A DNA stretch of 64,000 nucleotides from Novakomyces olei. Its lineage: Eukaryota. This document shows positions 10,695 through 57,894 of this stretch, one piece after another. The DNA is taken from assembly GCA_016906335.1 (NCBI GenBank), contig JADEYG010000007.1, positions 124,001-188,000 on the forward strand, written 5' to 3'. How positions within the stretch are numbered: the first letter of the stretch is position 1; every line of letters starts with the position of its first letter. The position numbers and the translations under genes were made by a program. The notes below the pieces were generated by a model. The model had not been told where the DNA came from and searched no databases. It was given only the letters and a program-made list of their open reading frames with translations.

Positions 10695-13600
10695 TTACAC
10701 TTTATCCGACTCCGTTTGCAAAAGAGTCCCCGCCAAGTTCAGCCATGTCTGCTGTTCCTTGGAGAGAACTTGCCCCGGCTGTTCGAGCAGGTAATAAATA
10801 ATCTTTTGCACTTGCATGCGTAGAATTCTAAAAGCCAGCAGCGACCTCGCGTTATCAAACGCAAAGCGTAACCGGCCATGGTCGAGGGAGAGTTGGCCAG
10901 ACAGTAATTTAAACTCGCCATCCCCGCAAAGCATGGCCACAGCAGAAGGCTCTATCTTTGCCGTCTCCTGGGCATAAAGCTTCTTGCTTTGAATGAGTGA
11001 GTAGTATGCAATGAGGCGGGTATGTGCGTCCAATCGTTTACCGAAATTAACAGAGGTCGGGTGGATTGAAAGATGCTTGTTGTTCATGATCGTATGCGTC
11101 TGCCCCGAACTGGGATCGTGTTTCATTAGCTTTGGGTATAGACCCGCTCCGACAACTGCGCTTGTTATCCAAGTATTTTCACTGTTTGCGTTATATTGGT
11201 CCGGCAAAAAAAAGAACCGCGCTTGTCGGGAGCTCTGGTATCTCAGCGAGTTTAGCTGCTGCTGTAGCGTTGAGCTCAGTGAGAGCAATCGAGCATCAAT
11301 TAGCAGCTGAATGTATTGCTGCCGCAAATCTTCAATGGCAACAAGATCACGGGCAGACAAGAAGTTTTGACTGCAAAAGGCCTTTTCTGAAAGATGGCTG
11401 GACCCCGTGCACACGCGTCTCCATGTGCAGTACACTTGGAAGACAGTTTGGAAATCAGAATTATCCTTGGCAAAGTGCATTTTGGCTCTTTCTGCCTCTT
11501 TTTCCAAGCCAAACGGGCTTTGAAAAGGCGACTTTGTCGATAGACTGGCAGCAATCACGAGAGCAACGTCGAGACACTGGAATGCCAGGCCGAACAGGAT
11601 AATCTTGCCCAGATAAACGTCGACAGGGAGCATGGCTAGATGCTTACCCAGTAGGGTCAGGTCTTCATCCGTTGCGGTAAGAGCCCCAACGTCCACCAAC
11701 GAGCTAATTGCCCTCCGAACATTGTCCGGCGAAGGAGGATCAAGCGCATCTGTTAGCACTTCATTAATTCCCCCTAGCTCACACGTTTTAACGCGCATGG
11801 ACAAGTCCTGCAGCGAGAGCCGTTTGATCTCTGGAACCTGATGATCCGTCATCCATTTATTGTATCTATTACGCGTAAACAAGTGGAAGCAAAGACCCGG
11901 TCGGACTCGACCAGCACGTCCTCGTCTCTGTTGAGCGTTCGCCTTGGAGATAAAGCCCTCAACAAGTCGGCTGATCTGACGCTTCTCGTCAAAACGCATT
12001 TCCTTCACTTTACCCGTGTCAATTACACACGTAATGTCGGGTATAGTGATACCCGTCTCTGCAATATTTGTAGCCAGTACCACCTTTCTAACTCCCGGAG
12101 CAGGTGGCTCAAAGACGGCTTCCTGGTCGTTGCTGGCAATGGAAGAATGAAGAGGGTAAATGACCCAGGCGTTGCTGCCAAAGGCAGGGTGTGATAAAAG
12201 TGCACTATAGAGTCTCCTTATTTCTGCCAGGCCGGGCAGAAAAACAAGAATTGCTTGGCTAAACTGTCGCACACCGTCATCGCTGCCATAAGCAATCGTG
12301 TCTAAAAGGGACACAATCAAATCGTAGTTTATTCGGTACTCTTCCATCATTGCCAGGGTTTTCTGGGTTTCAATGCTGTAGCCGGAAAGGCAGCCGGAAG
12401 CAGCCGGTGATTGAGCGGCAGCCAGAGAAGCCTGCTCCGTTTCGTCATCAAACTCCATATTGAATTGGGAGCTTCGCAGTTTTGTACGTGCAAACGGTGA
12501 TTTTTCATCCAGCTTGTAGCCCGTCAGTTCTATCGCGTCTTCCAGAAACTTTTCCTCCACCGGGAAAGTGCGGCCGGGGATGTTTAGTATGGGGCAGTTG
12601 AACATGTACGTGGACAGCCGTTCTGCGTCCACTGTGGCGGACATGAGAATGACTTTTAAGTCGGGTCTGTACTTGAGGATTCTGCGGACAACAATCAACA
12701 AGAAATCAGAATCAATGCCCCGCTCATGCACCTCATCAATGATTAAATGCGAAATTGATTCTAGTGTCTTGGAGCCCTCCAACATGCGCAGTACGATTCC
12801 TGTTGTGGCGAATGTGAGACGAGTGCTCCTGCACGTTTTGGCCTCGAGTCGGATAGCGTAGCCGATGTGAGAACGTACGGTGCCACAGGCCCCACGAGCA
12901 TCGCCCAGCTCTTCAGAGACTCGATGTGCTAATGAAAGAGCCGAAATGCGTCTTGGTTCGGTACAAACTATATTGAAATCCAGCTGATGGCCAATCTTGT
13001 CCTCCATTATGTACGCAGGTATCTGGGTACTCTTGCCGGAACCCGTTTCGCCACAAACGATGACCACCTGGTTCGCTTCTATTACATCCAAAAGCTTATC
13101 CCTGAAACCAGCTACAGGTAGCTCCATCCTACCCAAATTCATCTCCATATACTGTGGGCTCTCCGTCCGCACTTGCCACTGTTGAGCCATTTGCAGCCTT
13201 GTTTCTGCTGGTACACGGTAACTCTCCGACTCAGACGCCGTACTGTCGCCTTTGTGCTCGTCTTGAGAAACGTTGGATTTGAGTTCCAGTCCTCGAAGAC
13301 GGTTTTCAAGCACTCTGGACAAAAGCTTCAACGTGTCCCGCGTACTCGAATCCCTCTGCATAATAAACTCTTTTTGTTTTTCGTCATAAAGGTCTCGGAA
13401 AGGCTTGGGCAGTTGAGTATGGGTCATTGTGCCGGCAGTTGCTGCAGAGGATACAATCGCCACCGTCGCTACATAGTTTTGCGCCATCTCGTACGACGTA
13501 CAGCAATCATCTGCCATATCATAATGCTCACTAGGAGCACCGTTAGAGAATTTAACTGTAAGAGACGTCTGCACACAGATAGTGCCCTTGGGATGACTCC

Positions 13601-15068
13601 AGGTTAGCTCGCAACCTTTGTCTTTACGTTTACACGCATCCTGAAACAGCTTCACCGGGTAAAGCGACTTGCTTGTCGACTTGGGGATCACAAAATTGCG
13701 AATGTTGAGCATACGGCTGTTTGCGTCTTGCGCTTCCACCTGCTGTGGCTCATCAAACATGCCGGCTAGATCTGGTGCAGAGTCGGAACCTCCTTCATCG
13801 CCAGAGTTTTCGTTTGTTTTAGACCTCTCTGAGCCGTTGGCAGTGGTAACGGAAGGAGAGCTTGCCTTGCTGGACAGGTCGGGTGAATTATTGCTGGAGA
13901 GCAGCAGCTCATCTTCGCGTTTCAGCTTTTCAAATAAAGCGGTTTTTCTGGGCTGAATCTCTCTTTGTGCACGAGCTCCGTCAAAGAGTACGTCTTTTGA
14001 TAAATCGTTTGCGAGTTTTTGCATCTTTATCAAGTCTTTGTCAGCATCTTCTGTATTACCCCCATTTCTCCGCAGTCTCACAATGCACCGTTGCACTTCA
14101 ATGATAGAAAGTCGCAGCTCTACATACTTGCTTGTGATATCATTGAAATCGTCGTCATCCTCACTGAAACGTCTCATTTGATCAAGAGTCCTTTGTTTTA
14201 TAGCAGCCGCTTCTTCTTCAGCCACTTCTGACCTTTCGGGTCTGTCGTGCTTGCCCTTGGACGATTCTATTGGCCGGCCCACAGACCGTTGAGTCCGGTC
14301 GGCTTGTAACTTTTCGGTATTCCAGTTTTTCCTTATATCAACCGAGCTAGACCCTGGACTGCCACCGACTGAAACGCTGGTCGATTTGATCGACTGGGCA
14401 AACCCTTGGTATCCATAATTGACTTGCGTGCTTGTGCTTAGCACTAGATTGCAAAACGAATCGTCAAGGTCCATATACTTTGAAGCATCCATGGCGGCGT
14501 TTATAGATTCCTGTGAGAACCCCAAATGACGAAGAAGACAATAGTTTACGCATAGCTTGGTAAGCGTCTTGTCTTTTTTCTCCAAAAGCATATCCAGTCC
14601 CCAAGACGACTTGCCTTTGCCACTAGACGCAGACGCAAAAAGAGTCTTTATATCTGGCTGAGCCAACACGTCATCAACCAGCTCGGGATCCATCTTTACC
14701 AATTCTTGCACAGAAAGCTTCATACGCTTTTCCACTTGAGCCTGTCTTATCTGCCGATCCGCTAGTCTTTCTGCAGGCACGTAAATTTTATCTACCAGCC
14801 CTTGCCAGTACAGATCTTCCATGCTTTCAAGTGTATCATCTGTACTGTTAGCAGCATCCTCCTTATGCGAGGAAAGTCCATTTGAACTGCTGTTTTGACC
14901 AGACGCAGCAGCAGAGGCAAAGGCAGAGGTAGAAGCAGACACTTCCTGCGACTCCTCAGGCTCGGGTGACTGAACTGTTTTGCTCTTCGAGGGAATCGAA
15001 GTAGTTGCAACTGCTCGAGCCGGATTCGAGGAGGCTCCTTTCCCTTTCTTCCCGCCCTTTTTCGCCAT
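10695..15068 (-). CDS. DEAH-box RNA helicase, DHX29/DHX57-like, intronless
   Basis: GETGSGKST, DEVH, SAT, TNIAETGITI and QRRGRAGR motifs; ATG at 15068 (MAKKGGKK). Confidence 0.92.
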   Translation of the reverse strand: MAKKGGKKGKGASSNPARAVATTSIPSKSKTVQSPEPEESQEVSASTSAFASAAASGQNSSSNGLSSHKEDAANSTDDTLESMEDLYWQGLVDKIYVPAERLADRQIRQAQVEKRMKLSVQELVKMDPELVDDVLAQPDIKTLFASASSGKGKSSWGLDMLLEKKDKTLTKLCVNYCLLRHLGFSQESINAAMDASKYMDLDDSFCNLVLSTSTQVNYGYQGFAQSIKSTSVSVGGSPGSSSVDIRKNWNTEKLQADRTQRSVGRPIESSKGKHDRPERSEVAEEEAAAIKQRTLDQMRRFSEDDDDFNDITSKYVELRLSIIEVQRCIVRLRRNGGNTEDADKDLIKMQKLANDLSKDVLFDGARAQREIQPRKTALFEKLKREDELLLSSNNSPDLSSKASSPSVTTANGSERSKTNENSGDEGGSDSAPDLAGMFDEPQQVEAQDANSRMLNIRNFVIPKSTSKSLYPVKLFQDACKRKDKGCELTWSHPKGTICVQTSLTVKFSNGAPSEHYDMADDCCTSYEMAQNYVATVAIVSSAATAGTMTHTQLPKPFRDLYDEKQKEFIMQRDSSTRDTLKLLSRVLENRLRGLELKSNVSQDEHKGDSTASESESYRVPAETRLQMAQQWQVRTESPQYMEMNLGRMELPVAGFRDKLLDVIEANQVVIVCGETGSGKSTQIPAYIMEDKIGHQLDFNIVCTEPRRISALSLAHRVSEELGDARGACGTVRSHIGYAIRLEAKTCRSTRLTFATTGIVLRMLEGSKTLESISHLIIDEVHERGIDSDFLLIVVRRILKYRPDLKVILMSATVDAERLSTYMFNCPILNIPGRTFPVEEKFLEDAIELTGYKLDEKSPFARTKLRSSQFNMEFDDETEQASLAAAQSPAASGCLSGYSIETQKTLAMMEEYRINYDLIVSLLDTIAYGSDDGVRQFSQAILVFLPGLAEIRRLYSALLSHPAFGSNAWVIYPLHSSIASNDQEAVFEPPAPGVRKVVLATNIAETGITIPDITCVIDTGKVKEMRFDEKRQISRLVEGFISKANAQQRRGRAGRVRPGLCFHLFTRNRYNKWMTDHQVPEIKRLSLQDLSMRVKTCELGGINEVLTDALDPPSPDNVRRAISSLVDVGALTATDEDLTLLGKHLAMLPVDVYLGKIILFGLAFQCLDVALVIAASLSTKSPFQSPFGLEKEAERAKMHFAKDNSDFQTVFQVYCTWRRVCTGSSHLSEKAFCSQNFLSARDLVAIEDLRQQYIQLLIDARLLSLSSTLQQQLNSLRYQSSRQARFFFLPDQYNANSENTWITSAVVGAGLYPKLMKHDPSSGQTHTIMNNKHLSIHPTSVNFGKRLDAHTRLIAYYSLIQSKKLYAQETAKIEPSAVAMLCGDGEFKLLSGQLSLDHGRLRFAFDNARSLLAFRILRMQVQKIIYYLLEQPGQVLSKEQQTWLNLAGTLLQTESDKV

Positions 15069-15865
15069 TATTAAAGAGGACGGGAAGAGGTGCCACAGAT
15101 AAAAGGACAAGTCTTAAAAATACAGCGTTCGCATTGGTCTCATGCTGTATATCAACGTCCCAGCATGTGTGACATTCGAGTCAAAGCCTTATGTGTAGTT
15201 GCTAATATTAAATAAAATACGAATATTCCTGCTGTACTCGTAAATAATCTATCTGTCATCTGCTGTATGCGTGAATTTTGACTATTTTTCGGCTTTTATA
15301 ATGTTCTTTATTATATTTTTTTTTTTCGAGATTTAGCTGTATTTACTATTTTCTTGTTGCGTGGCAAGAATCACACTTACATAGCGATAAGCTGTAATTT
15401 GCTTGTGAAATCTTTCTTTTGCAAGTTTTCATAATACCATTCTCATGAAGTTTTCATATCTACAAAAAACTGGTATATTTGGATGTTCATAAATTAAAAA
15501 TGTTATGCTAATCGTGGCAAATTTAACCCCATCCATCATTAAAATTAATGTAGCTTTATTAAGTCCAAGCTTCGCCGGTACAATTTTTCAATTTCTGCCT
15601 CTGCGTAAGCTACAAATTCCGTCGGGAGCGTCTTTTTGTCAAATTCTTTGATATTGGCATGTAATGCCAGGCCAGTACCGCTCTTTGGTAATGGAAATAA
15701 AAACATGGCTTTATCGAATAAGACTGTGTTTCCCTGAATATGAAGGCGTCGTGAATAAAACATTAGTTGCCCTCGCTATATTTGTGCATTCGACCATTGC
15801 CACCCTGACTTTATCAGCAATCAACGTACGCTTCCCCATAATTATTTATAAAGCGAATAAGAAAC

Positions 15866-16080
15866 TGTTGAATATAGAAGGTTGGAATTTGCTCTTATGG
15901 TAGATTAAATGAATTAGATACTCTAGATTGCTTCAGCTGAATCCCCCCCGAGGGTGTGAGGGTTCGCTTGAGCTATATATATGTAACTATGTATTTTTGA
16001 GTGAGTATTCTGTAAAGCTAAAAGTCAAACAACTGACACTCATGGTTGAGTTGTCTTAGCCGGTCAGTGAGTCGGCGAGT

Positions 16081-16178
<98 letters not shown>

Positions 16179-17710: not shown

Positions 17711-18057
17711 TGTTAGGCCATAGTGTAGATAGTAAAATTTAAATTTAAAATGACATAATTAAATTAAATTAATTCACTCCAAATACGGAATTTAACCGAT
17801 TTGGAGGAATATTTAATTACTAATCATTAAATCACGCCACTGATCGGGTATCTGTAACCTATCAATGATAAGGTGATTACTAATTGATCGGTTACTTCTG
17901 ATCCTATCTGATTACTAATTGATAGGAAAGTCTTGATCCTATCTCTGAGATAAGAGCTGAGCCTTGAAGTCTATAAAAGGACAAGGTTTTCCATAGTTTA
18001 AGAGTAGATTCAATTAATCTAAAGAGTTATAACAGTGAGTTACTTCCAGTTATAACA
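17711..18057 (+). repeat. Element B 5' LTR with three TTACTAA sites, TATAAAA at ~17972 and a GTGAGT splice donor at 18035
   Basis: Identical by eye to 30038-30384. Confidence 0.95.
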
Positions 18058-18787
18058 ACTTTTTTCACTGCTAACATTGTCAGTGAATCCGTCAGGAGAC
18101 AGCCGACGGCCTCGCATTGTCTACTCTGAGACATTTGCAAATCTCTTGAAGCAGGCAAAAACCGATCCAAAGGTTGTTGTCTCGGCTGGCTCTATCCGCC
18201 GAAGCAATACACCCAAGGATAAGGATAAAACCTCTGTGTCTGGACTTACCGACCAGAGTGCCCATTCAGAGAAAAATACCTCTATTCATCAATTGAATAA
18301 GAGGAAAGAAAGAAACGCTCGCCGATCGCAGGCATTCAAAGAGCGTAAACGCAACGGTCGAATTTCCAAGGAGCCTGAGTCAATTGCTGCTATTGCGGCA
18401 AAGGTGCTCAGAAAACCTCCTCCACCAGCGCAGAGACTTGGTCCTTACCCAGCTCCCACAGTTCCTTCAGTTTCTCTGGCCACTATTTCTGCTACAACTC
18501 CTCGCTTGCCTCTATCAGAGGAAGAAGTTTTTCGAAAACAAGCGCACTGGACAAGCAAAGCGGCGGCAAATCTACGCTACGAGGAAACATACAACAAATT
18601 GGTGGCCAATCGCATTCAAGAACTGCACAACAGGAAGAAAACAAAATATCTTCTGGACAACATTGTTGAGGACAGATTCAAAATTCGTCTTTACAGAGGA
18701 GAAGATCCAAACAAAGTTGAGAAGGATTACTACGAGCACTTGAAAAGTGGACAGCAATCACCAGCGTTTTTGAATACTTTGTATTAG
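18034..18787 (+). CDS. Element B accessory ORF0 (~234 aa, basic and Pro-rich, bZIP-like basic region); ATG formed by splicing A18034 to TG18084-18085
   Basis: Open frame with no Met; predicted intron 18035-18083 (GTGAGT...GCTAAC...CAG) yields in-frame ATG AAT CCG. Confidence 0.75.
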
Positions 18788-18854
18788 TCTTTTATATTTA
18801 ATATATTTAATTCTGTATCAATTTAATTTAAATTGATTAAAATATATTTTAAAT

Positions 18855-20625
18855 ATGGACTTCAAAATCAAGCTGCCTGAACCAGCAAAGCTGAATGGTC
18901 ATTCAATGACCCATAGAGAGTTCCAATCATGGAGAAGCTCTGTGGTTAAATGGCTGACATATGCCAAAGCAGGAGGCAGTGTTACCGGGATTTCAGATAT
19001 AGACTTAATTAGCATGTTCCTCGAATCGAACGCTACAATCTATGCTGAAGAACTCAGGGACAATGCTAGTGTAACGACAGATCAGATGCTTGATCATCTG
19101 GAGCGAAGCATTGTACCCAACGACTATTTACCACGCGCTTACAGCAAGTTTGTTACCTTCGCTCAAGGAACAAAAAGCATTAGCCAATATGCCACGCAGC
19201 TTAAATTGAAATCAATGGAACTAGAAATAGTTAACGAAGCCATCTTAATTCAACAATTCATACATGGGCTAAATGAGAGAACAAAGCCTCAAATAATGGG
19301 ATCTTTGAGAAGCGCATTTGGAAATCAGTCGGGAAACAACACAGGAATGACGAAATGGAAATGGCAAAGTGTGGTTGATGTGGCAACAGGCTACGATTTT
19401 ACTGCAACAAGACCATACATAGGGAGCATGAATCCTAAACAAGGCAACCAACAAACTGAAGCAAAGGCAACTACTTCTGAGAAGAAAGAACCAGAGAAGC
19501 CAGCCCTCAGAACAAGATGTACCTTTTGTCGCCGCACTGGGCACACGTACGAGCAGTGCTTTAAACGAAAGAATCAATCAACCATCAGTGCTCTTAAAGA
19601 TGATTCTGAAATAGTTAGCAAAGAAATCAAACTTGATTACAATTGTTCTGCTGTCCAAAACACAAACCAACAATTTCTAGTAAATCTACCTGTGGAAATA
19701 AATGATAAAGAAATCAAATGTCAGGTCCTGATTGATACTGGAAGTGATATTGATGTTATTGACTCAAACTTTTGCAATGTTCACCGACCAACATACAAAG
19801 AAAGTGACCACAAAATTCAAATGGCCTTTCAAGGATCGAAAACTGTGAGCAGATATATGGCCAAAGTCATGTTCAAAGGCAGCGAGTTAAATTGCGCCGT
19901 TGCAAGACTCAGAACTTCTGATCTATTGATTGGCATGGGAACACTGAGTAAGCTTGGGGCAATTGTGAACACTCGCAAACGACATATACAATGGCAGGAA
20001 GATGCAAATGAAAGAAGGTTTGTCAAGCCAGAAGTACTTCCTGTAGTCAGCTCAATAACAATCGATGACAACAAGAGAATTGAAGTCCAACAAGTTACAA
20101 ATGAGGACTTGGTTGACCCAGAAAAAGTACTGCAGATACTTCAAGACAAGTTTGATCAAACTTTGATCAAGGATCCTCCAAGCAAGTTGCCTATAATGAG
20201 ACCTGTGGTTGCTACATATGAGCCAATTGATCCAGAAAAAAGGTATAACATAAAAAAGTGGTACCCAAGCAAAAAGCTTATGTTGCCTCTGAAATTAAAG
20301 ATTGATGAGCTATTAAAAGCAAAGATGATCTCAATCTCTAGCAAAGAACCTAGTGCAATACTGTTTCCTATTCCCAAAGACAAAGAAATGGTTAACAAGC
20401 TAACAGATCCTAAAGAAATAATTAAATATTTGAGATTTGTTAATGATGCTCGACCTCGCAATGCAAACATGAAGCGTTTCTACATTCAAGTACCACGTAT
20501 TGACATAGTTGTACAAGACATTGCACGAGCAAAATACAGAACTAAGATTGATTTGAAGGACGCTTTCTTTCAATCAAGAATACAACCCGGACAAGAACAC
20601 TACACGGCATTCTGGACACCATTTG
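18855..20625 (+). CDS. Element B gag-pol, 5' part: Gag with CCHC knuckle, aspartic protease, start of RT
   Basis: CTFCRRTGHTYEQC, LIDTGS and KIDLKDAFFQ motifs; continues as ...WTPF|GIYQWNVMPQG after C is removed. Confidence 0.93.
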
Positions 20626-21331
20626 TGTAAGGTGGCCCTTAGAGGGGAGCACCGCGGTGTAAACTCGCGTGTCGCTACAGGCGAACACGGACTGTCCTTT
20701 GCGAGACCGCTCGACAAAGGAAGTTCAATCGGTTACCGCGCGAAGCGAGTACCGAGAAACGGGAACGTAGACTTGCGCCCGGCGCAAGAACTAAGGAAAA
20801 GGAAAAGGACGTTGTCCTTGAAAAGGCGACGGCGCTTCTCTAAAGCTTACCTGCTACAAGGCTATGTAGCAACTTTGAGATTATAAGCCCGTGGAGAGAG
20901 TTCTCTCCATGGGCGACTATGTAGACTATCCTATGAGGCTTAGCGGCTCGCTTAGCCACTTCGCGGCCTAAGCCTCATCCCACCACGATCTCAATGCGAT
21001 GGTCCCAGACCATCCGCATTGGGAAAGCGGTGGCGAGCTATGAACTCTATGGATCGATCTATCTAGCTTCGTAGCGATGCGCGATCGCTACTACTACTGT
21101 CATGCGCCGCGACGTGCCTACGTCGCGCGGGCATGGACGTGGACCTGCTTCGCGCGAGCCAGGTCCAACCTGCTCGCGAGCTAGGCCACTTACGCGCTTC
21201 GCGCGAGTAATGTCCAACATTACCTCGCGCGAGCTATTTAGATCTATCTAGCCTGAAGTCATCGCCTTTGGCGCTACAGGACTTCAGGCGTCGTTCGCTG
21301 TCGTGGTTCACGCGAGGCGGGGATCATGACA
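20626..21331 (-). repeat. Element C 3' LTR (706 bp, GC/CpG-rich, many inverted repeats)
   Basis: Identical by eye to 26824-27529. Confidence 0.95.
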
Positions 21332-21450
21332 CTATCCCCCCTTTCTAGGGCGAGGTCTCCGCGCCTATGAAAACCACGTTAGCTACTAGACTGCTATATA
21401 AGTGCGCTTTCGGCAATAAAACTATCTAAGTAATATAAAGTAATTTGCGG

Positions 21451-21951
21451 ATGCAAAACAAGAATTTTCGCTCTGCGTTCCGGATCAACAACAACATGTC
21501 GCTTGCTCATGTCAGAGATGCTATCGTGCCCTGCGAGTATTGCGTGGCAAACTCTTTGCCGTGCCGCTTCGTTCTCGGCACTGCACCGTTTGTGCGTCGC
21601 TGTATGGTCTGCGCGGCACGTCGCACCCGTTGCGAAGGAGGCCGTTTTCTTCATGACAATGAGGAGAACGAGCGCCTTGTTGCCGCGCGTGAAGAACAGC
21701 GTGTGAGAGAGCGCGAGGAGCTGCAGCGTCGCCGCGGAAGACGTCGCGCGCGACAGCGAGCGCAGGAGGAAAGACGTCAGGCACCATTCGAGGTGCATGT
21801 AATTGCCGATGACGGTCCTCCGTCAACAAATTCGATCGTCGGTTCGGTTTCGAGTGCGCTGGCCCAGCGCGATGCGACTATCGCTCGCCTCGAGCGCCGC
21901 AACCGTGCGTTGGAGCGCGAGATTCTTTCGCTCCGTGCCGCTCGTCCGTAA
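21451..21951 (+). CDS. Element C antisense accessory ORF: Zn2Cys6-like cluster plus charged coiled coil (ATG at 21451 or 21496)
   Basis: C-x2-C-x6-C-x12-C-x2-C-x6-C pattern; upstream TATATAA at 21395; downstream AATAAA x2 at ~22078-22091. Confidence 0.75.
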   Translation: MQNKNFRSAFRINNNMSLAHVRDAIVPCEYCVANSLPCRFVLGTAPFVRRCMVCAARRTRCEGGRFLHDNEENERLVAAREEQRVREREELQRRRGRRRARQRAQEERRQAPFEVHVIADDGPPSTNSIVGSVSSALAQRDATIARLERRNRALEREILSLRAARP

Positions 21952-22178
21952 TTGTGTGCGTGACTCAACAGCCATTCCTCCTTGCGTTGTCCCATATTAT
22001 TTGTTCGACAAGTAATTGAATATGTTTTTGTATAATTTTCTCGTAATAATTTAAACAATAATAATCGCGGTATAATCAATAAATCAATAAATCACTTTAA
22101 GAGTTGAGTCTTAGTTTCGCGTGGGTGACGAAAGTTGAAGGTCGTCGCCCGAATAGGGAGCTCGCTTAGCATTCCCAT

Positions 22179-25100
22179 TTAAGAACCAGGTTTGTTCGGG
22201 TGTGCACGGTGGAATTCGTTTACCAAATCCATGCAGTTGTGTAAATGTTTCGCAGGCTCCCACGTGCGGTCGGAGGCGTCGTAGCCTTTCCAATGCACAT
22301 AATATTGAAGTTGCTTGCGTCGGATGCGCGAGTCTAGAACTTGCTCGACTTCCCATTCCGGGTTAGCATCCAATATAACTGGAGGTGGTGGCGCGATCTG
22401 TTCTCGCGCGATCTGCGACACTGCGTTATGTCGCTCTAGCAATGAAGCGTGGAAGACAGGATGTATACGCATTGCCTTCGATAGTTCCAAGCGATATGCA
22501 CGCAAACCAACGCGTGCGATAATCCTAAACGGTCCCAGCTTCTTGGCATCCAGCTTATCGCATGGCCGCGTAGTGCTAATATTTTTTCGCACTAGCCAGA
22601 CTTGATCGCCAATAGCAAAACTTTTGTCGACGCGATGCTCATTTGCAAAGCGCGCCTGGTCGCTGAGAGACTTTTCGATTTCGACTTTCAATAAGCGATG
22701 TAGATTCCGTAGGTATTCGATACGTTCATCCGCGGATGGGCATTGTCGCGAAGATGAAATCGTAAAGCGACATTTCGGGTTGTAGCCGTAAAAAGCGTAA
22801 AACGGTGTTGTCTTTGTAGACGACTGCTCTGAATTGTTGTACGCGAATTGAGCAAAAGGTAACAAATTGACCCAATTGCTTTGCTGATAGTTGCTGTAGA
22901 TCCTCAGATATTGCTCTAAGATCTGGTTAAGCCTCTCTGTTTGGCCGTCGCTCTGTGGGTGGTACGCGGTAGACAACTTCTGCTGTATATCGCATTGCGA
23001 AAGCAAGTGTCGTGTAAACTGCGATACAAATACCGAACCCCTGTCAGAGACTATTTCGTCTGGTAGGCCATAGTTGGCAAATACGCGATGGGCGTAAATC
23101 AAAGCTAGCTCAGTAGCCTTAATAGATTCGCGTATTGGTATAAATATTCCGATTTTCGTAAATCGACAGGTGATTACCCATATGGAGTCGTAGGTTTTTT
23201 GTGTAATCGCATCGCGCGACTCCGGTAATTTCACAATGAAGTCCATTGAGATACTTTCCCAGGGTCTCGCTGGTACTCTCAGTGGGTGTAGTAGTCCATA
23301 CGGTGCATGTCGCGAAGGCTTGTTTCGCGCACAAGTATCGCACGACTCGACGTAGCTAAATATCTCTTTTCGCATGCGTGGCCAATAGTAGTTTCGCATG
23401 ACTAAGTCCAACGTTTTGGCCTGGCCAGGGTGACCCGCGACATGCGAATCATGGCATGTCTGTAGTATAGCTAATCGCAAACGATTGTCGTTTGGGATGT
23501 ATAGCAAACCCGAAAACGTTAGAAGACCCTTTTCGTTTATACTGTAGTTTCGCAGATGTTCCGACACTGGCTGCTTGCCGAGGTCCTCCATGACAACCTT
23601 GCAAGTCTTGTCTTTGCCGTAACATTGTTTAATCTGATCATCAATGCCTGTATCTTCTACGGTCGCGAACAGGAAGTGCGATCTGTCCAATAGTGCCATA
23701 GTTCGCTCTGGTTTCTCCTGTTCCTTATCGCCGACATAATCGCTTCGCCTAGACAAGGCATCCGCTTTGTGATTTAGCTTTCCAGCACGGTATTCAATAA
23801 CGAAATCATAGGAAGCGATCAATTGCGACCATCGCATCTGTCTACGGCTAAGTACTCTTGCTGTAAGAAAGTACATGAGATTGCGGTGATCCGTATAAAT
23901 TGTAGTGCGATGTAACGGACTCTCCAGGTAAACTCGCCATTCGCGAAGACATGCGACAATAGCTAACAGCTCTTTGTCGTAGATATCATAGTTTACTTCC
24001 GCGCTAGTCATTTTTCGCGAGTAGAACGCGATGGGTCTCATTTCGTCGCTGTTGTCTTTCTGCGAGAGAATCCCACCGATCGCGAAGTCCGATGCGTCGG
24101 TTTCCAAATAACTTGGCTTCTGCGGGTCGAAATGCGCAAGGATCGGCGCACCCAGAAAAGCGTTCTTCAGAGTTTGGAAAGAGTCAATGCACTCCTTGGA
24201 GAAATTAAACTGCGCATCCTTCTTCAGTAAGCGGGTGAGAGGGATGGTAATTTTGCTGTAGTTTGCAATAAATCTGCGATAGTAATTTGATAGGCCTAAG
24301 AACGACATAACGTCTTTCGCGTTCTTGGGTTCAGGCCATGTCTCAATAGAATCAACTTTCGCTTTCTCCATAGACACTCCTTTCGTAGAGACAACAAAGC
24401 CTAGGAACTCTGTCGTGTCTGTGTGGAACTCGCATTTCTCTAGTTTCACAAATAAGTTTGCTTTGCGAAGTCGTTTCAGTACTTCGCGAACATGCGTCAC
24501 ATGCTCCTCCTCGGTGTCCGAATAGATCAAGATGTCGTCCAAGTATACAACAGCAAAGCGATCCAGACAATCGCGTAATGTGTCGTTCGCAAGAGCTTGG
24601 AAAGATGCCGGGGCGTTCGTGAGCCCGAAAGGCATAACCTGATATTCGTAATGTCCATAACGCGTACGGAAGGCGGTTTTCCACTCGTCGCCTTCGCGTA
24701 TACGGACAAGATTATACGCGCCACGGAGATCTAATCGCGTAAATATCGTCGACTGACGAATGCGATCCAATAGCTCCGATATGAGCGGCAGCGCATAGCG
24801 ATTTTTGACAGTTACCGCGTTTAGCCCGCGATAATCTACGCACAGTCTCAGCGAACCGTCCTTCTTTTTCACAAAAAGAATTGGAGCCCCCGCGGGCGAT
24901 GAAGACGGCCTAATGAATCCCTTCGCTAGATTGTCTTTAATGTAGTCGCGTAGTGTTTGTAGCTCGCGTTCGGCCAGAGGATATATAGGCCCGAACGGCG
25001 GCTTCGCGCCTTCTGTCAACGGTATTGCGTGATCCCACGCCTGATGCTGTGGTAGAATGTCTGCATTTCTTTTCTCAAAAAGATCGCGAAAGTCTGCATA

Positions 25101-25730
25101 CTCGGGAGGTATAGCGACGTTTTTGTCCTCGCTTTTAGCGTCGGTCGCGTATACGCACAGCAATCCCGAGTCGTTGCCTCGCGATAGCTTAGCAAATTCC
25201 GTCGCACTGATTTGCGATGGTTCGTCTTGTGCCTCGGGCTTCTTGAGGCAGTTTGCTAAGCAATAGGAAGACTCGAATTCGACTTTTGCACGTCTCCATG
25301 CAATCCTTGGCTCATGTTTGTCGAGCCATGGCTTTCCTAAAATAACGTCGTGTCCAGAGAGCGGTATCACGTTAAACATCATAGTCTCGCGATGTTCGCC
25401 TATGGTGACCTCCATGTTTTCAGTCTGGAAGCGAACACCTCCGGTGCGAATCGCTCTTCCATCCACAACTCGTAGTGGCTCAATCTTCGCCTTCTTCGTT
25501 ATATCGATTATGCTTCTCGTAGCAAGGCTCTGGCTGATAAAATTCGACGTCGCGCCTGAGTCGATCAGCGCCTTCGCGTCCAGCTGGCCCTTGCTAGTTC
25601 TCAAATTTGCAGTAACTGTGAGATGTATTCCTCTGTCAGGTTCGGGTACCACTGACATCACCTCCGAAAGCCTCGTGTCATTAACGCCCAGATCAGGCCT
25701 TTCTTTTAGACCTGGGCTCTCGCTTTTCCC
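22179..25730 (-). CDS. Element C pol (PR-RT-RH-IN-chromodomain), in the -1 frame relative to gag
   Basis: LIDSGAT, LRLCVDYR, MPFGL, YLDD, TDASD, HHCC, SDRG and GPF motifs; C-terminal WEVEQVLD...VHWKGY...TWEP chromodomain. Confidence 0.96.
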   Translation of the reverse strand, partial: GKSESPGLKERPDLGVNDTRLSEVMSVVPEPDRGIHLTVTANLRTSKGQLDAKALIDSGATSNFISQSLATRSIIDITKKAKIEPLRVVDGRAIRTGGVRFQTENMEVTIGEHRETMMFNVIPLSGHDVILGKPWLDKHEPRIAWRRAKVEFESSYCLANCLKKPEAQDEPSQISATEFAKLSRGNDSGLLCVYATDAKSEDKNVAIPPEYADFRDLFEKRNADILPQHQAWDHAIPLTEGAKPPFGPIYPLAERELQTLRDYIKDNLAKGFIRPSSSPAGAPILFVKKKDGSLRLCVDYRGLNAVTVKNRYALPLISELLDRIRQSTIFTRLDLRGAYNLVRIREGDEWKTAFRTRYGHYEYQVMPFGLTNAPASFQALANDTLRDCLDRFAVVYLDDILIYSDTEEEHVTHVREVLKRLRKANLFVKLEKCEFHTDTTEFLGFVVSTKGVSMEKAKVDSIETWPEPKNAKDVMSFLGLSNYYRRFIANYSKITIPLTRLLKKDAQFNFSKECIDSFQTLKNAFLGAPILAHFDPQKPSYLETDASDFAIGGILSQKDNSDEMRPIAFYSRKMTSAEVNYDIYDKELLAIVACLREWRVYLESPLHRTTIYTDHRNLMYFLTARVLSRRQMRWSQLIASYDFVIEYRAGKLNHKADALSRRSDYVGDKEQEKPERTMALLDRSHFLFATVEDTGIDDQIKQCYGKDKTCKVVMEDLGKQPVSEHLRNYSINEKGLLTFSGLLYIPNDNRLRLAILQTCHDSHVAGHPGQAKTLDLVMRNYYWPRMRKEIFSYVESCDTCARNKPSRHAPYGLLHPLRVPARPWESISMDFIVKLPESRDAITQKTYDSIWVITCRFTKIGIFIPIRESIKATELALIYAHRVFANYGLPDEIVSDRGSVFVSQFTRHLLSQCDIQQKLSTAYHPQSDGQTERLNQILEQYLRIYSNYQQSNWVNLLPFAQFAYNNSEQSSTKTTPFYAFYGYNPKCRFTISSSRQCPSADERIEYLRNLHRLLKVEIEKSLSDQARFANEHRVDKSFAIGDQVWLVRKNISTTRPCDKLDAKKLGPFRIIARVGLRAYRLELSKAMRIHPVFHASLLERHNAVSQIAREQIAPPPPVILDANPEWEVEQVLDSRIRRKQLQYYVHWKGYDASDRTWEPAKHLHNCMDLVNEFHRAHPNKPGS

Positions 25731-26653
25731 GGTTCCGTGATACTGTCCATAACCACCGAGATGCGTTGCTCATAATTGCGTTGCTTCTGTTTGCAATCAC
25801 GTGCGCGATGACCTTCGCGTCCGCACGTAAAACATCTGTTCTCTTTCTTTCGACGCTGGCGTTCGTCGCTGGTAATGCTCTTCTTTTCGTAACTGGTAGC
25901 ATCTACCTCCATGGGAGTGTATCCTTTGTTCGCGATCGTCGCGCCCCTATAGCCTGAAGCGCCCTTGGCGTTCGTACGGCTAGCGCTTTCGTAGTAACGA
26001 TCCGACAACCTTTCGTCCACGCGTACAGACTTCTCAATTAAGTCTGACAATGTACGCGATTTTTCCAACCGAGATAATTCGTCCTTAATTCGATCTTTCA
26101 ATCCTTGATAATATTCGTAGCGTAAACTGTGATCGCTAAAATCCAAGTGCGAAGTGATCTGCTGAAAACGCGAAGTATACTCAGCAACAGATCCTCGCTG
26201 TTTGAGCAATGCTAGCTCCCGCTCAGCCTGACTAATGCGGTCGACGCTCCCAAATGTCGTGGAGAGCTCGTCGCAAAACAGGGCAAAGTCACTGGTAATT
26301 AGGCTTTCATCGTGGTCGCGCAAGTGGGGTTCAAACCACGCAAAAGCGGCACCGCGCAGATAAGATACCGCAAACAGGACCTTCGCTTCGTCGTTGCGAA
26401 ACTCATGTGGCTTGAGTCTCACGTATAAGCGAACCTGTGCAAGGAAAGTATCCACCGATCTGCGATCACCTCTGAATGTATCCGGCTTCGAAATGCTTGG
26501 CCCTTCGCTGACTCCTGATCGTCGAGATCCCCGGGATCCCATTTCCTGGCGAAGGCCTTCAATAACCGATTTGTCCTTAACGCGCTCCTCTTGGAGCGAC
26601 GCGATCTGCGCCTGCAGCGTCTGCAGAAACGCGTTCAAGTCCTCTTGACTCAT
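25706..26653 (-). CDS. Element C gag (retrotransposon Gag with CCHC zinc knuckle)
   Basis: PDTFRGDR, SYLRGAAFAW, LKQRGSV.EY, PMEVD and CFTCGREGHRARDC motifs. Confidence 0.95.
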   Translation of the reverse strand: MSQEDLNAFLQTLQAQIASLQEERVKDKSVIEGLRQEMGSRGSRRSGVSEGPSISKPDTFRGDRRSVDTFLAQVRLYVRLKPHEFRNDEAKVLFAVSYLRGAAFAWFEPHLRDHDESLITSDFALFCDELSTTFGSVDRISQAERELALLKQRGSVAEYTSRFQQITSHLDFSDHSLRYEYYQGLKDRIKDELSRLEKSRTLSDLIEKSVRVDERLSDRYYESASRTNAKGASGYRGATIANKGYTPMEVDATSYEKKSITSDERQRRKKENRCFTCGREGHRARDCKQKQRNYEQRISVVMDSITEPGKARAQV

Positions 26654-26807
26654 CGTAATTCAATAATTCGTTTGTGCTGCTAAACCGTAGCAAAGCACCC
26701 TTCGTCGCAACAACTTAGTGCGAAATAAAACTTGTAAATCGAAATCTGTGTACGCCTCCGTGCGTGACACCTTTCAACGCCGTGTAAATCTGTAGCTTAG
26801 ACGAGCT

Positions 26808-26821
26808 CACGGGCTTATAAT
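26808..26821 (-). promoter_or_regulatory. Element C primer-binding site, self-priming type
   Basis: 14-nt perfect inverted repeat of LTR positions 27078-27091; lies 2 nt inside the 5' LTR boundary; no TGG. Confidence 0.75.
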
Positions 26822-26823
26822 AG

Positions 26824-27529
26824 TGTAAGGTGGCCCTTAGAGGGGAGCACCGCGGTGTAAACTCGCGTGTCGCTACAGGCGAACACGGACTGTCCTTTGC
26901 GAGACCGCTCGACAAAGGAAGTTCAATCGGTTACCGCGCGAAGCGAGTACCGAGAAACGGGAACGTAGACTTGCGCCCGGCGCAAGAACTAAGGAAAAGG
27001 AAAAGGACGTTGTCCTTGAAAAGGCGACGGCGCTTCTCTAAAGCTTACCTGCTACAAGGCTATGTAGCAACTTTGAGATTATAAGCCCGTGGAGAGAGTT
27101 CTCTCCATGGGCGACTATGTAGACTATCCTATGAGGCTTAGCGGCTCGCTTAGCCACTTCGCGGCCTAAGCCTCATCCCACCACGATCTCAATGCGATGG
27201 TCCCAGACCATCCGCATTGGGAAAGCGGTGGCGAGCTATGAACTCTATGGATCGATCTATCTAGCTTCGTAGCGATGCGCGATCGCTACTACTACTGTCA
27301 TGCGCCGCGACGTGCCTACGTCGCGCGGGCATGGACGTGGACCTGCTTCGCGCGAGCCAGGTCCAACCTGCTCGCGAGCTAGGCCACTTACGCGCTTCGC
27401 GCGAGTAATGTCCAACATTACCTCGCGCGAGCTATTTAGATCTATCTAGCCTGAAGTCATCGCCTTTGGCGCTACAGGACTTCAGGCGTCGTTCGCTGTC
27501 GTGGTTCACGCGAGGCGGGGATCATGACA
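26824..27529 (-). repeat. Element C 5' LTR
   Basis: Direct repeat of 20626-21331. Confidence 0.95.
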
Positions 27530-27534
27530 ATTTG

Positions 27535-30050
27535 GGATATATCAGTGGAACGTCATGCCTCAAGGAGATCGTAATTCCACTGCTATACAGCAACAACTTA
27601 TGGAGGAGCTCTTCAGACCTTACATTGGAATATGGATGACAGTCTATGTCGATGACATAATAATATACGACGATGATGTCCAAGCACATTTGGACCATTT
27701 GGTGCTAGTTTTTTGTATTATGTCAAAGTGGGAACTATACGCGAGTCCAACCAAAACATTTCCGTTTTGCAAGAACTTTGTTGTGCTGGGACGACAAATC
27801 AGTGATGAAGGAATCAAAATGACTGATAAATCAAAAAACTCCATATTGCGACTGGAACCACCAAAGAATATTAAGCAAGTACAAAGATTAGTTGGAATGC
27901 TGAATTGGGTTTCAACGTTTATACCAAACTTATCCTCTCACATTTCAACATTCACTGAGATGAAGGACTTTTCTTGGGACGAAACAAAACAAAAAGGCTT
28001 TGATAAAATCAAGAAAGCAGTTCAGCACGACATAGTACTTTCACCGTTTGACCCTGAACCCCTGAATAATGGTACAGAAAAGCTATTCATGGGAATAGAT
28101 GCTTCACTAGTTGGTACAGGTGGATGGCTAGGACAAGGACAAGACTGGAGAAAATGCAGAGTAATAGGCTTCACGTCGAAAAAATTAGGGATAGCTGAAT
28201 CACATTATCCTGTACATGAACTTGAATATCTTGCATGCATACGAGCTCTTGATCATTTTGAAATATATGCTCGAGGTTACCAAGTCAATTGTTTGACAGA
28301 CAACCAAGCTCTGAGTCGCCTCCTTTACTCTAAAAATGTTATGCTTTCACGAAGACACCTTAGATGGATGGATTTTTTAAATGAGTTCGATATAAATATT
28401 ATTCATGTTCCCGGAACTGAAAATGTCTTGGCGGATCTACTTTCAAGAACACCCGGAAAAACATCTGATGTAGGTGCAATTTCCGTACAAATTTCGCCCC
28501 AGAATAATTTAAAATTTGAGTTGGCCTACGAAAAGGACAGACATTGGTCCAAAATACTCACTATTTTGAAAAATCCAGACAGTTTCACAGACAACGAAAG
28601 CGTAAAAATCAAATCGCGCTACTACATCCAAGACGGTATAATACATCTCCAATACGATGATCGAATCTGCCTACCAACAGATTTCACCAACATCATAATA
28701 AGAGAATCACATGACACCTACCAAGGAGGGCATGGAGGTATAAAGAAAACAATAGCAGGCGTAGGCCGCAAATACTACTGGCCAGGCATGGCAAAAGAAA
28801 TAAATGAATATGTCAGATCATGTGAAACGTGCGCTAAAAGCAAAATAATACCTCAAAAGCCAATGGGACTATTGCAAGAACTCGATATACCGAGTAATCG
28901 ATGGCAAACAATAGGCATGGACTTTATCACTGGACTACCAGCTTCGGGGACTCGAAAGTTTGATGCTATAATTTGCATAGTTGATCGTCTAACCAAAAGA
29001 GCTCATTTCTGGCCCACGCACACAACTATAACAGCACAAGGAACTGCACAGCTATTTCTGGAAAGATATTTCTGTCTACACGGCTTACCAACTGCAATAA
29101 TAAGTGACAGAGATGTAAGATTTATGTCTGAATTTTGGCAGACACTTACAAAAACTCTTCAAATCAAACTGAAGCCATCATCAAGCTATCACCCACAGTC
29201 CAACGGTCAAACCGAACGCACAAATCGTGTATTGGAAGACTATCTTCGTCTTTTCATTTATGCCAATAAAAAGAACTTCAGCTGGCACACATTATTATCG
29301 TTTGCCGAATTCTTTTACTCTTCAAGCCAACACTCCGCCATATCAATGACACCCTTTGAGGCGGATCTTGGCTACATTCCACGTAGTCTTACTGACTTAT
29401 CAATGCCCGAAACACCGAACAAAGATACTTCCTCTTTTATAAACACTCTGGAGGCCAACAAAATTCTTTGTCAAGATGCTATCAGAACAGCACATGATTT
29501 ATCAAAAATCTATGCGGATAAAAAGCGAATAAATGTTGAATATAATGTTAATGACCTGGCTTATTTAAGCACAGCCAACATACGAGAAATACCGGAGCTA
29601 TTCCACGATGTTCTCACACGAAAATTACAATCAAAATACATTGGTCCATTCAAAATTATTCAAAAAATCAGTCCTGTTTCATATGAATTGGAACTACCAA
29701 CATCAATAAAATATCATCCCGTTGTTCACATTTCTCAATTAAAGAAACATCATCCAATGAACAGTCACAACACCAGAGAACAACCTAAGCCTAAAGCTCT
29801 GCGACGCTACAAAGACAACACAGAATTATATTTGATCCAACAAATCGTTGACCATGGATGGTTCAAAGGGTCTAAAAAATCCAATACACCGAAACAGGGG
29901 TATAAGCTATTATACCGAATCCGCTGGGAAGGCTATGGACCTGAAGACGATACATGGGAACCTAAATCTCACTTGGCTAACTCAACCAACCTGCTGAACA
30001 ACTACAATTCGACACATCTCGAATTAGTGGGGGAGGATGTTAGGCCATAG
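27535..30050 (+). CDS. Element B gag-pol, 3' part: RT-RNase H-integrase-chromodomain; stop codon lies 13 nt inside the 3' LTR
   Basis: YVDD, IDAS, ADLLSR, HHCC, SDRD and GPF motifs; YRIRWEGYGPEDDTWEP chromodomain. Confidence 0.95.
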
Positions 30051-30384
30051 TGTAGATAGTAAAATTTAAATTTAAAATGACATAATTAAATTAAATTAAT
30101 TCACTCCAAATACGGAATTTAACCGATTTGGAGGAATATTTAATTACTAATCATTAAATCACGCCACTGATCGGGTATCTGTAACCTATCAATGATAAGG
30201 TGATTACTAATTGATCGGTTACTTCTGATCCTATCTGATTACTAATTGATAGGAAAGTCTTGATCCTATCTCTGAGATAAGAGCTGAGCCTTGAAGTCTA
30301 TAAAAGGACAAGGTTTTCCATAGTTTAAGAGTAGATTCAATTAATCTAAAGAGTTATAACAGTGAGTTACTTCCAGTTATAACA
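30038..30384 (+). repeat. Element B 3' LTR (347 bp)
   Basis: Direct repeat of 17711-18057, preceded by PPT. Confidence 0.95.
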
Positions 30385-33567: not shown

Positions 33568-33578
33568 GGCTCATAACC
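33568..33578 (-). promoter_or_regulatory. Element A PBS GGTTATGAGCC, half-tRNAiMet priming type (as in copia/Ty5)
   Basis: Immediately follows the 5' LTR terminal CA on the minus strand; matches the known Hemivirus-type PBS. Confidence 0.85.
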
Positions 33579-33793
33579 TGTTGAATATAGAAGGTTGGAA
33601 TTTGCTCTTATGGTAGATTAAATGAATTAGATACTCTAGATTGCTTCAGCTGAATCCCCCCCGAGGGTGTGAGGGTTCGCTTGAGCTATATATATGTAAC
33701 TATGTATTTTTGAGTGAGTATTCTGTAAAGCTAAAAGTCAAACAACTGACACTCATGGTTGAGTTGTCTTAGCCGGTCAGTGAGTCGGCGAGT

Positions 33794-33873
<80 letters not shown>

Positions 33874-34203: not shown

Positions 34204-35703
34204 ATGAGCTCACCAGAGACCGAATCGCCTTCGCAATCGGCTGCGGAGTCGCCTACAAGTACGCGGCAAACCCACCAACCAGATACAAAACAGCCTGCAC
34301 ATTTACATGAGTTTGGGCATTTAGATCGGATTGTCCATGTCGATTTCGATGATCAGCCTCGTGCTTTCCAGCCTCCACGGTTCCATCAGTATATAAAAAA
34401 CGGACGTCTGCACCGGTCACGGTTTGAACGACCAGTAAACCAGTTTGAATTGTTTCTTGATCTTGTACTTGTTGGCGTCGTGCACACTCTTGCCGATGTG
34501 GCAGTAGAGGAGCAAACTGGCGCCGCCATTGCCAGGTTTGTTTTGACCTTCTGGGGCGCCTGGTCAATATGGACAGACTACCGTAACTTTGCTAATGTCA
34601 GTGGCATGGACGATATACCTCAGCGCGTGTACACTTTCTCGGTAATGGCGCTTTTGCTGGGCTACACATCAAACGCGACCGGTATCGAACTGGAGCAGGA
34701 GACTTTTCACGAAAACAGGGCTGCCCTGCGTGGAACATTAGGGTTTCTTCTTGTCGCTAAGTGTATTCGCTTCAGCATTTTTTTATGCTATGGGCTTTAT
34801 TTACGGGAGTTTCTAGTGAACCAGTTGACACTGGCCGCGAGAATGCTAACTGCTTCTATTTTCTACATTTGCGCAATGTTCACACCAACATTGAAGGATG
34901 CCGCTATCTTGGCGGGGGTCGGTGGGGCTATAGAAATCTTCACACCTTTGGCATTGGGTATTTTCGCCAGATCAATCATTCGTGAAGGTACTGAAGAAGA
35001 CGGACAGCAACAGCAACCGCAGAGACCTCGCCTTTTAAGGGGCACCGGCGCCATTACCGTTATTAATATTGAGCATCAGGCCGAGCGAAATGCTGCTTTT
35101 TACACAATTGTGCTCGGGGAAAGCGTGGCTAGTGTACTGTATAATGTGCATGAGTACAGGGAGGCAGCGGGTATAAACCAATTTTATGGTCGTGCAGTAT
35201 TAGTTCTCTTTGTGGCTTTTTGCTTTAATTGGATATATTTTACACGCGATTACCTTGTCGACAAAACTCATCCGATTCGACGTCATTGGCTCACTGCTTG
35301 GATCTATCAAAACGCACATTGGCCTCTGTGTGGCAGCCTTATTTTGTCGGCTGCAGGCGTCTCAAGACTTGTGACAAGAGAATCGGTTGAAGGTGGCATT
35401 AAGTGGTACTGGGGCGGTGGTGTTTCTGTAGCCCTCGTTTGTATTACTATAATCGACTTAATTTACAAGTGGGATTATATGAATGCTATTCGTTACGCTG
35501 TGCTGGTGACGCGCCTTTTTTTCCGTGTCGCTGTTGTAGTCATATCTTGTACTCTGCCCCTGGCTAGAGATTTGCTGAACCTCGATTTTATCGGCATTTA
35601 TGCGGCAATTTTTGTTTTCCTTGTAATCGAAGAAGTTTCGGGGAAACTTATCATCATGCGTGATGTTATGTCCAAGGGAGGCAGACATCACAACGAAGCT
35701 TGA
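34204..35703 (+). CDS. LtrA (low temperature requirement protein A)-family multi-pass membrane protein
   Basis: FELFLDLVLVG and H.AER...FYTIVLGESV motifs; many TM segments. Confidence 0.8.
   Translation: MSSPETESPSQSAAESPTSTRQTHQPDTKQPAHLHEFGHLDRIVHVDFDDQPRAFQPPRFHQYIKNGRLHRSRFERPVNQFELFLDLVLVGVVHTLADVAVEEQTGAAIARFVLTFWGAWSIWTDYRNFANVSGMDDIPQRVYTFSVMALLLGYTSNATGIELEQETFHENRAALRGTLGFLLVAKCIRFSIFLCYGLYLREFLVNQLTLAARMLTASIFYICAMFTPTLKDAAILAGVGGAIEIFTPLALGIFARSIIREGTEEDGQQQQPQRPRLLRGTGAITVINIEHQAERNAAFYTIVLGESVASVLYNVHEYREAAGINQFYGRAVLVLFVAFCFNWIYFTRDYLVDKTHPIRRHWLTAWIYQNAHWPLCGSLILSAAGVSRLVTRESVEGGIKWYWGGGVSVALVCITIIDLIYKWDYMNAIRYAVLVTRLFFRVAVVVISCTLPLARDLLNLDFIGIYAAIFVFLVIEEVSGKLIIMRDVMSKGGRHHNEA

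Positions 35704-47545: not shown

Positions 47546-51471
<3,926 letters not shown>

Positions 51472-57629: not shown

Positions 57630-57894
<265 letters not shown>

Follow-up and report, generated by a model that had tools for sequence, protein, structure and literature searches.

A conserved gene of no known family, with a bZIP-like basic helix and a predicted split start codon, lies ahead of gag in a fungal chromovirus family

The analyzed DNA, a 64-kb stretch here referred to as the window, belongs to a fungal genome of 14.3 Mb in 15 contigs and contains three nested LTR elements. The element of interest, designated element B (17711..30384, +), is inserted in a Ty1/copia element and is delimited by a 347-bp 5' LTR (TG...CA; 17711..18057, +), an identical 3' copy at 30038-30384 and identical flanks, the target duplication being CATTG; the identical LTRs together with this duplication indicate that the element is young. 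Pfam matches were obtained to gag, protease, RT, RNase H, integrase and chromodomain, and the best PDB match of the RT is that of Ty3. The LTRs, the PR-RT-RH-IN order and a chromodomain that ends the integrase are those of a Ty3/gypsy chromovirus, to which group element B is assigned based on its domains and their order. The 5' part of gag-pol occupies positions 18855..20625 (+), its ATG at 18855 being the first ATG past the predicted splice donor described below. The pol gene is split by element C, a nested chromovirus (20626..27529, −), and is continued at 27530..30050 (+), where ORFs and Pfam matches identify the end of RT, RNase H, integrase and chromodomain. An uninterrupted sister of element B, which is 95% identical across the LTR and the adjoining gene, carries a single Gag-Pol frame of 1428 codons.

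The adjoining gene, designated ORF0, precedes gag and is represented by a stop-free frame (18056-18787) in which Met is absent. Its coding exon is placed at 18084..18787 (+), i.e., 233 codons past a split codon in a gene of 234 codons, the product of which has a pI of ~10. A genome search returned 18 ORF0 matches that fall into four lineages, B1 (that of the window), B2, B3 and B4, with B2-B4 being 52-58% identical to B1, and the frame is open in all four. Between the deep lineages pS is near saturation (0.63-0.70), as against a dN of 0.29-0.35, a pattern that marks ORF0 as a real gene under purifying selection and on the basis of which a chance frame was rejected. Conservation is concentrated in three blocks, namely an N-terminal helix, a basic helix and a C-terminal domain of 94 residues (18503..18784, +; 69-79% identity, dN 0.14-0.21), the latter being the largest conserved part of the protein and helical in a low-confidence model, while the two linkers retain ~30% identity between deep lineages. 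A B1 copy with one base fewer near the acceptor contains a frameshift in ORF0, which may reflect either a decayed copy or an assembly error. Furthermore, B3 and B4 are near-identical over the first 88 codons of ORF0 and saturated in the C-terminal domain, which we take as a sign of recombination within the gene. A swap of ORF0 and LTR onto a shared gag-pol was also considered and was rejected, as the synonymous sites of gag-pol are saturated too.

The ORF0 product, as far as sequence searches reach, belongs to no known family. It matched no Pfam family, and no homologue was returned by single-protein searches, profile searches, searches of 1.84 billion representatives or searches of metagenome contigs. 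Among PDB sequences only ribosomal proteins S20 (E=0.78) and L24 (E=1.9) were returned, a further search gave one match at E=0.41, and the ESM Atlas yielded no usable match for the whole protein or its C-terminal part (best 0.77). Structure models were of low confidence (pLDDT 56 and 59), and fold searches with these low-confidence models gave generic helical matches only, with a best Z of 6.2. The element itself is similarly isolated, since its Gag found no match when compared with longer proteins and its RT found one match in metagenomes, at 28%; for lack of an outside relative, co-occurrence of features could be compared only inside the family, here named family B.

The region from U5 to gag is devoid of ATG: in none of the frames does one appear between 18035 and the gag ATG at 18855, and the same holds over 747-820 nt in all four lineages. 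Shuffles of this stretch predict 6.4-10.2 ATG and were ATG-free in 0, 0, 2 and 0 of 1000 cases for the four lineages, codon-order shuffles were ATG-free in 2-10 of 1000, the opposite strand holds 4-10 ATG, and gag-pol holds 14-30 per 800 nt. In each lineage an A and the donor GTGAGT are present in U5, followed by a T-run, GCTAAC, CAG and then TG. In the window these signals define a predicted 49-nt intron (GTGAGT...GCTAAC...CAG; 18035..18083, +), equivalents of which measure 42-51 nt across the four lineages. Its removal would join A 18034 to TG 18084-18085 and thereby create a split start codon (18034..18085, +) that opens the ORF0 frame and is preceded by an A at -3, as in 5/5 copies from the four lineages. 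The resulting AUG would be in frame whatever the intron length, which varies out of frame. The TTG at 18077 was considered as a mutated ATG and was rejected because this codon differs in B2-B4. The stop codon of ORF0 is separated from the gag ATG by an AT-rich spacer (18788-18854; 31-71 nt across the four lineages), a possible place for a polyadenylation signal or an internal promoter.

Priming must take place in the 26 nt that follow the LTR, and the predicted intron takes in these as well as the last 23 nt of the LTR; the spliced RNA presumably could therefore not be reverse transcribed. A perfect self-priming complement of 9-14 nt to the RNA 5' end, as is characteristic of the Tf1/sushi self-priming group, was found in nine of the ten other chromovirus elements checked, whereas the longest one in family B measures 6 nt (in B1). 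Family B has neither such a complement nor a TGG start (18057-18075), and the 6-nt match is to its own splice donor. A search for the priming-partner pattern returned 72 places versus 35 in the control, with three exact matches outside family B.

A single LTR transcript with two fates is quite probable given this arrangement, the anatomy being observed and the splicing predicted from it. The unspliced RNA would keep U5 and the primer site and, with no AUG for ~820 nt, would serve as genome and as Gag-Pol message through ribosome scanning, while the spliced RNA would lose the primer site, gain the ORF0 AUG and yield ORF0 protein only. The fate of the 49-nt intron would in this manner decide the use of each transcript: with the intron retained, the RNA would be genome and Gag-Pol message, and with it removed, the RNA would encode the accessory protein and be dead for replication. 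The whole 234-codon gene would be kept AUG-free so that ribosomes can scan through it.

Three RNA runs contributed 2, 0 and 3 partly fitting reads. Several observations temper this scheme. Outside family B the intron pattern was found 15 times versus 17 in the control, and 93 kb of host DNA contained one intron-like unit versus 1-7 in shuffles, i.e., neither count is above its control; nine host matches were tested and seven scored, and removal of the unit clearly lengthened the shorter open side in five. A putative invariant hairpin (CCGTC...GACGG; 18089..18109, +) lies just past the acceptor, and in a second putative invariant stem the donor would pair with TTCACTG-CTAAC; in both, all pairs are kept and there is no covariation. 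With the donor and branch signals able to form this second stem, their conservation may be due in part to RNA structure.

These stems bear on another expression route, in which ORF0 would be translated by leaky scanning from a near-cognate start on the unspliced RNA, and in which a structure used in packaging or priming would account for the intron-like signals as side effects. All four lineages have CTG and GTG codons in frame (CTG 18068 and GTG 18083 in B1), an ATG-free leader would be expected here too, and the donor and branch motifs can pair mutually. Such a route nevertheless leaves unexplained why an A-preceded canonical donor, a branch site, a T-run, CAG+TG and an A at -3 occur jointly across introns of differing length, and protein conservation begins directly past the acceptor; it is accordingly rated improbable, and splicing into the split start codon is preferred.

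The second block of ORF0 had been described, in a reading made from the sequence only, as a Yap/AP-1-like basic region. The basic stretch concerned, KRKERNARRSQAFKERKR, is indeed present and encoded at 18299-18352, within a conserved helix resembling a bZIP basic region (18290..18352, +) in which 16/20 residues are invariant across the four lineages (dN 0.02-0.12). One broken ORF0 copy has two arginines of the stretch altered. The invariant residues include Gln, Leu, Asn, Ala, Ser, Phe and Glu and lie on all sides of the helix, and because non-basic residues are thus fixed as well, the caveat that the stretch is only an NLS is unlikely to apply.

To gauge the likeness, a 17-residue profile was derived from 10 host bZIPs, the ORF0 segment having been picked by eye beforehand. 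ORF0 scored 29-31 on this generic bZIP profile, inside the host leave-one-out range of 26-38, and none of 5000 shuffles of the helix reached its score. Among 81,927 distinct 17-mers (716 with at least seven Lys/Arg), the ORF0 variants ranked directly below nine host bZIPs, the tenth being outside the scan because its frame is too short, and the next non-bZIP scored 23.6. An hhalign comparison gave P=0.00025 and a probability of 43%. Measured in this way, the likeness of the helix exceeds what its basic composition provides. The Yap-specific part of the description fared less well: on a Yap profile ORF0 scored 37-41 as against 53-60 for host Yaps, and an unrelated Arg-rich stretch scored 38.8. 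Of the Pap1 signature RxxxNxxAQxxFR, the R, N and F are kept in ORF0 and the A, Q and final R are changed. Judged by the Pap1/Yap residues covered in PMC7261193, ORF0 shares the equivalents of Arg82, Asn86, Phe93 and Arg96 and the following ERK, and its LTR shares TTACTAA and variants thereof, but the protein differs at the equivalents of Ala89, Gln90, Arg94, Arg87 and Arg91. Three of the six Pap1 base contacts are kept (Arg82, Asn86, Phe93) and three replaced (Ala89 by Arg, Gln90 by Ser, Arg94 by Lys), and one of the four phosphate contacts is identical, two Arg being replaced by Ala and by Glu/Gln. Furthermore, an Asn and an Arg eight residues apart are invariant in 10/10 aligned host bZIPs, whereas ORF0 has the Asn and, in all four lineages, a Lys for the Arg.

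The absence of a leucine zipper past the basic region, which the sequence-only reading had also pointed out, was borne out. The Leu of 10/10 host bZIPs is represented by Lys/Ala, and the zipper's place is taken by a variable, proline-rich linker (18353..18502, +) of ~30% identity, the heptad positions of which are not hydrophobic; in B2-B4 prolines come after the basic region. Comparison with bZIP profiles gave a divided answer: the short basic-region profile recognizes ORF0, yet Pfam returned nothing and ORF0 is absent from the 15 bZIP_1 matches that the host genome yields up to E=1. No bZIP match was found in PDB either, and the best E-value from an unfiltered host-bZIP HMM was 1.3. From the missing zipper and the lack of a Pfam, PDB or HMM match it follows, at the level of sequence, that ORF0 is not a member of the bZIP or Yap family.

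A missing zipper is compatible with DNA binding, as illustrated by the bANK factors ToxE, Aps2 and Apf2, which according to PMC4109984 combine a zipperless bZIP-type basic region with a C-terminal domain and are marked by this basic region plus four ankyrin repeats. A helix of this type can thus function in DNA binding at sites other than YREs, and ToxE binds DNA (PMC4109984). ORF0 resembles these factors in joining a zipperless basic region to a C-terminal domain, but has no ankyrin repeats (no Pfam match), carries its helix internally, is encoded by a retrotransposon and shows no sequence match to them.

The LTR provides the potential counterpart of this helix. TTACTAA is present at 17817, 17877 and 17912, as had been reported, each time inside ATTACTAAT, and is repeated in the 3' LTR at 30144, 30204 and 30239; the rest of the 64 kb contains one forward-strand TTACTAA and two TTAGTAA. 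Site 1 occupies 17817..17823 (+), and sites 2 and 3 do lie within ~35-bp units, i.e., a two-copy 35-bp tandem with 83% matches (17874..17944, +). The notion of three independent sites was rejected, sites 2 and 3 being products of tandem duplication, and the fair count of independent TTACTAA sites is therefore two. Dinucleotide shuffles of the LTR give probabilities of 0.0004 for at least three, 0.014 for at least two and 0.17 for at least one TTACTAA. Among 29 aligned B1-type LTR copies, 21 have all three sites, seven have lost or altered at least one, and one is truncated.

Other words accompany these sites in U3. TCACGCCA (17832..17839, +), a putative SREBP-type site, occurs in the U3 of B1, B3 and B4 (three of the four lineages) and in 0/11 control LTRs. 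Family B LTRs also hold CTTGGC repeats and GATA-type words, putative PacC and GATA sites. An unbiased k-mer comparison singled out CTAATCA, which overlaps site 1, as the one 7-mer with at least two G/C that is present in 4/4 U3 regions (1/11 controls); having been found post hoc, it is a lead only. A TATA box lies at 17972..17978 (+), and transcription would start ~33 nt 3' of it, by analogy with the TATA-to-self-primer distance of 32-34 nt in four other elements.

Across lineages, AP-1/Yap-type sites are clustered in the LTRs of family B, but co-occurrence of the helix with strict TTACTAA was not supported, this site being found in 1/4 lineage LTRs. With the motif relaxed to T[TG]A[CG]T[AC]A, three sites were counted in B1, nine and 15 in two B2 U3 regions, three in B3 and none in B4. 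The B2 arrays consist of tandem TTACTCA and TGAGTCA, and their number of AP-1-type sites (9-15) changes as the copy number of the tandem varies between copies. At least three such sites are thus present in three of the four lineage LTRs as against 0/11 control LTRs from other elements, nine of which are free of them, the other two having one site and two scattered sites, respectively. This contrast favours a link between family B and AP-1-type control, albeit with the weight of one event versus about ten, given that the lineages form one family, that some control LTRs are mutually related and that the motif was picked after viewing B1.

The sites vary in sequence between lineages, whereas every helix contact position is fixed, and B4, whose helix is identical to that of B3, has other repeated motifs in place of any AP-1-type site (weak evidence, B4 being a single truncated copy). 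Three of the four site variants are among those listed for Yap1, which include TTACTAA, TTACTCA and TTAGTCA in the account of PMC7261193. Ten of the host bZIP_1 matches display Asn-x7-Arg-x9-Leu, and four of these ten are Yap-type. Since the sites vary under a constant helix and are missing from one lineage, and since four Yap-type bZIPs are available in the host, the sites are more likely to be inputs for host Yap/AP-1 factors. The alternative that the sequence-only reading had offered, i.e., that host Yap factors read the LTR, therefore fits the sites better than self-binding; the two features are each real, and a lock-and-key relation between them is probably not the correct one. Host-factor control of LTRs is known for the fission-yeast elements Tf1 and Tf2, Ty3/gypsy chromoviruses like element B, which in the account of PMC7175516 answer host stress factors, Sre1 in the case of Tf2 and peroxide in that of Tf1. 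Tf1 and Tf2 self-prime with 11 nt (PMC7175516), as opposed to family B with its 6-nt complement only and its extra gene before gag.

A direct regulatory loop was weighed against this. ORF0 would then be an element-encoded zipperless bZIP-type factor that binds the AP-1/Yap-type arrays in its own LTR, where it would activate, repress or compete with host Yaps, and its dimers may be tethered through the C-terminal domain in bANK-like manner. The bZIP-range scores, the shuffles, the rank among 17-mers and the hhalign result all speak for such a factor, as do the site clusters in three lineages, the post hoc CTAATCA and the precedent of ToxE and Apf2 (PMC4109984). It is disfavoured by the altered Pap1 base and phosphate contacts, by the missing zipper and Pfam match, by the absence of ORF0 from the bZIP_1 matches, by the identical helices of B3 and B4 with sites in B3 only, and by the one-against-ten nature of a contrast built on a motif chosen after B1. 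We consider it unlikely. The complete version, in which a zipperless bZIP-derived regulator gains its AUG only after splicing of the primer-site intron, feeds back on its own AP-1/Yap arrays and is thereby wired into the host stress network, is unlikely as well; if true, such a self-regulating LTR loop would represent a complex-retrovirus-like element in a fungus.

The helix could also be a protein-contact surface or bZIP mimic, directed at a coactivator, an import receptor or a silencing factor, with ORF0 acting as an anti-silencing or decoy protein. Invariance on all sides of the helix, including the acidic Glu, is consistent with such a role, as are the C-terminal helical domain being the largest conserved part of the protein and the occurrence of extra ORFs of 350-425 codons in other families of this genome. 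Against it, no partner or fold emerged from the fold searches with low-confidence models. Least convincing is a role confined to nuclear import, as a plain NLS leaves the invariant Gln, Leu, Asn, Ala, Ser, Phe and Glu unaccounted for. The proposal as a whole is thought quite unlikely.

The best overall reading, to which we assign a probability of roughly 0.42, combines host-read U3 sites, one LTR transcript with two fates, and an ORF0 protein that binds nucleic acid of its own element. U3 would be a patchwork of host transcription-factor sites in which TTACTAA serves as input for host Yap/AP-1 bZIP proteins, and the invariant zipperless helix would contact a target other than TTACTAA. This reading accommodates the selected ORF0, the persistence of A|TG and of the splice signals across four lineages, the ATG-free leader, the four host Yap-type bZIPs, the drift of sites under a fixed helix and the three changed base contacts of six. 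It is opposed by the helix score, which lies in the true bZIP range and above every tested non-bZIP 17-mer and hence points to DNA, by AP-1-type clusters that mark family B and no control LTR, by the putative invariant donor/branch stem, and by an intron pattern that is not above controls outside family B and in host DNA.

As for the target, the intron-bearing 5' end of the RNA is the likeliest candidate, though doubtful when taken on its own, and its binding would help the unspliced genome to be retained or exported in analogy to HIV-1 Rev and to CERV of the Caenorhabditis elegans element Cer1; another LTR motif comes second. The RNA is put slightly ahead because of the CERV precedent and because splicing has to be evaded by a genome that carries consensus splice sites; the AP-1-type LTR arrays rank close behind it, and a protein-contact role comes after these. 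As described in PMC10309623, CERV is a protein of 517 aa made from a spliced mRNA of five exons, which are partly shared with gag and end 3' of pol, and the genomic RNA of Cer1 depends on this protein for its export. Common to CERV, Rev and, by prediction, ORF0 is an accessory protein derived from spliced RNA while the genome stays unspliced, and Cer1 is likewise of the Ty3/gypsy type (PMC10309623). ORF0 differs from CERV in lying 5' of gag, in having one tiny predicted intron and in showing no homology, and its export role would be by analogy; searches by sequence and fold found no link of ORF0 to Rev or CERV.

Fungal LTR retrotransposons are normally simple gag-pol elements under the control of host factors. 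Family B has, ahead of gag, a conserved, regulatory-looking gene of no known family. In kind this is a known thing, an accessory regulatory gene of an LTR element; what is unusual is its expression route and a protein that belongs to no known family. Literature searches, whose scope took in few subscription journals and no supplements, returned neither a retrotransposon-encoded bZIP-like regulator nor a start codon split by a primer-site intron. Should the helix bind LTR or RNA, an early/late switch would have evolved outside retroviruses, and a bZIP-type helix would be working without its zipper.

Of the remaining sequences in the window, element C carries a 166-codon ORF antisense to its gag-pol (21451-21951, +), a relative of which is present at another genomic locus. 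Its product combines an Arg-rich helix, which achieves the next-best score on the bZIP profile, with a Cys cluster that gave a weak Zn-cluster match (E=0.65). In element A, the copia element, the LTRs include long runs of TAT triplets, with 32 copies at 15862-16177 and 26 copies at 33575-33872. The nest is situated beside host genes for an intronless DHX29-like DEAH helicase (10695-15068, −) and an LtrA-family membrane protein (34204-35703, +), and two long TAAA-type tandem arrays (47993-48184 and 57631-57894), ~9.4 kb apart, flank a gene-bearing stretch.
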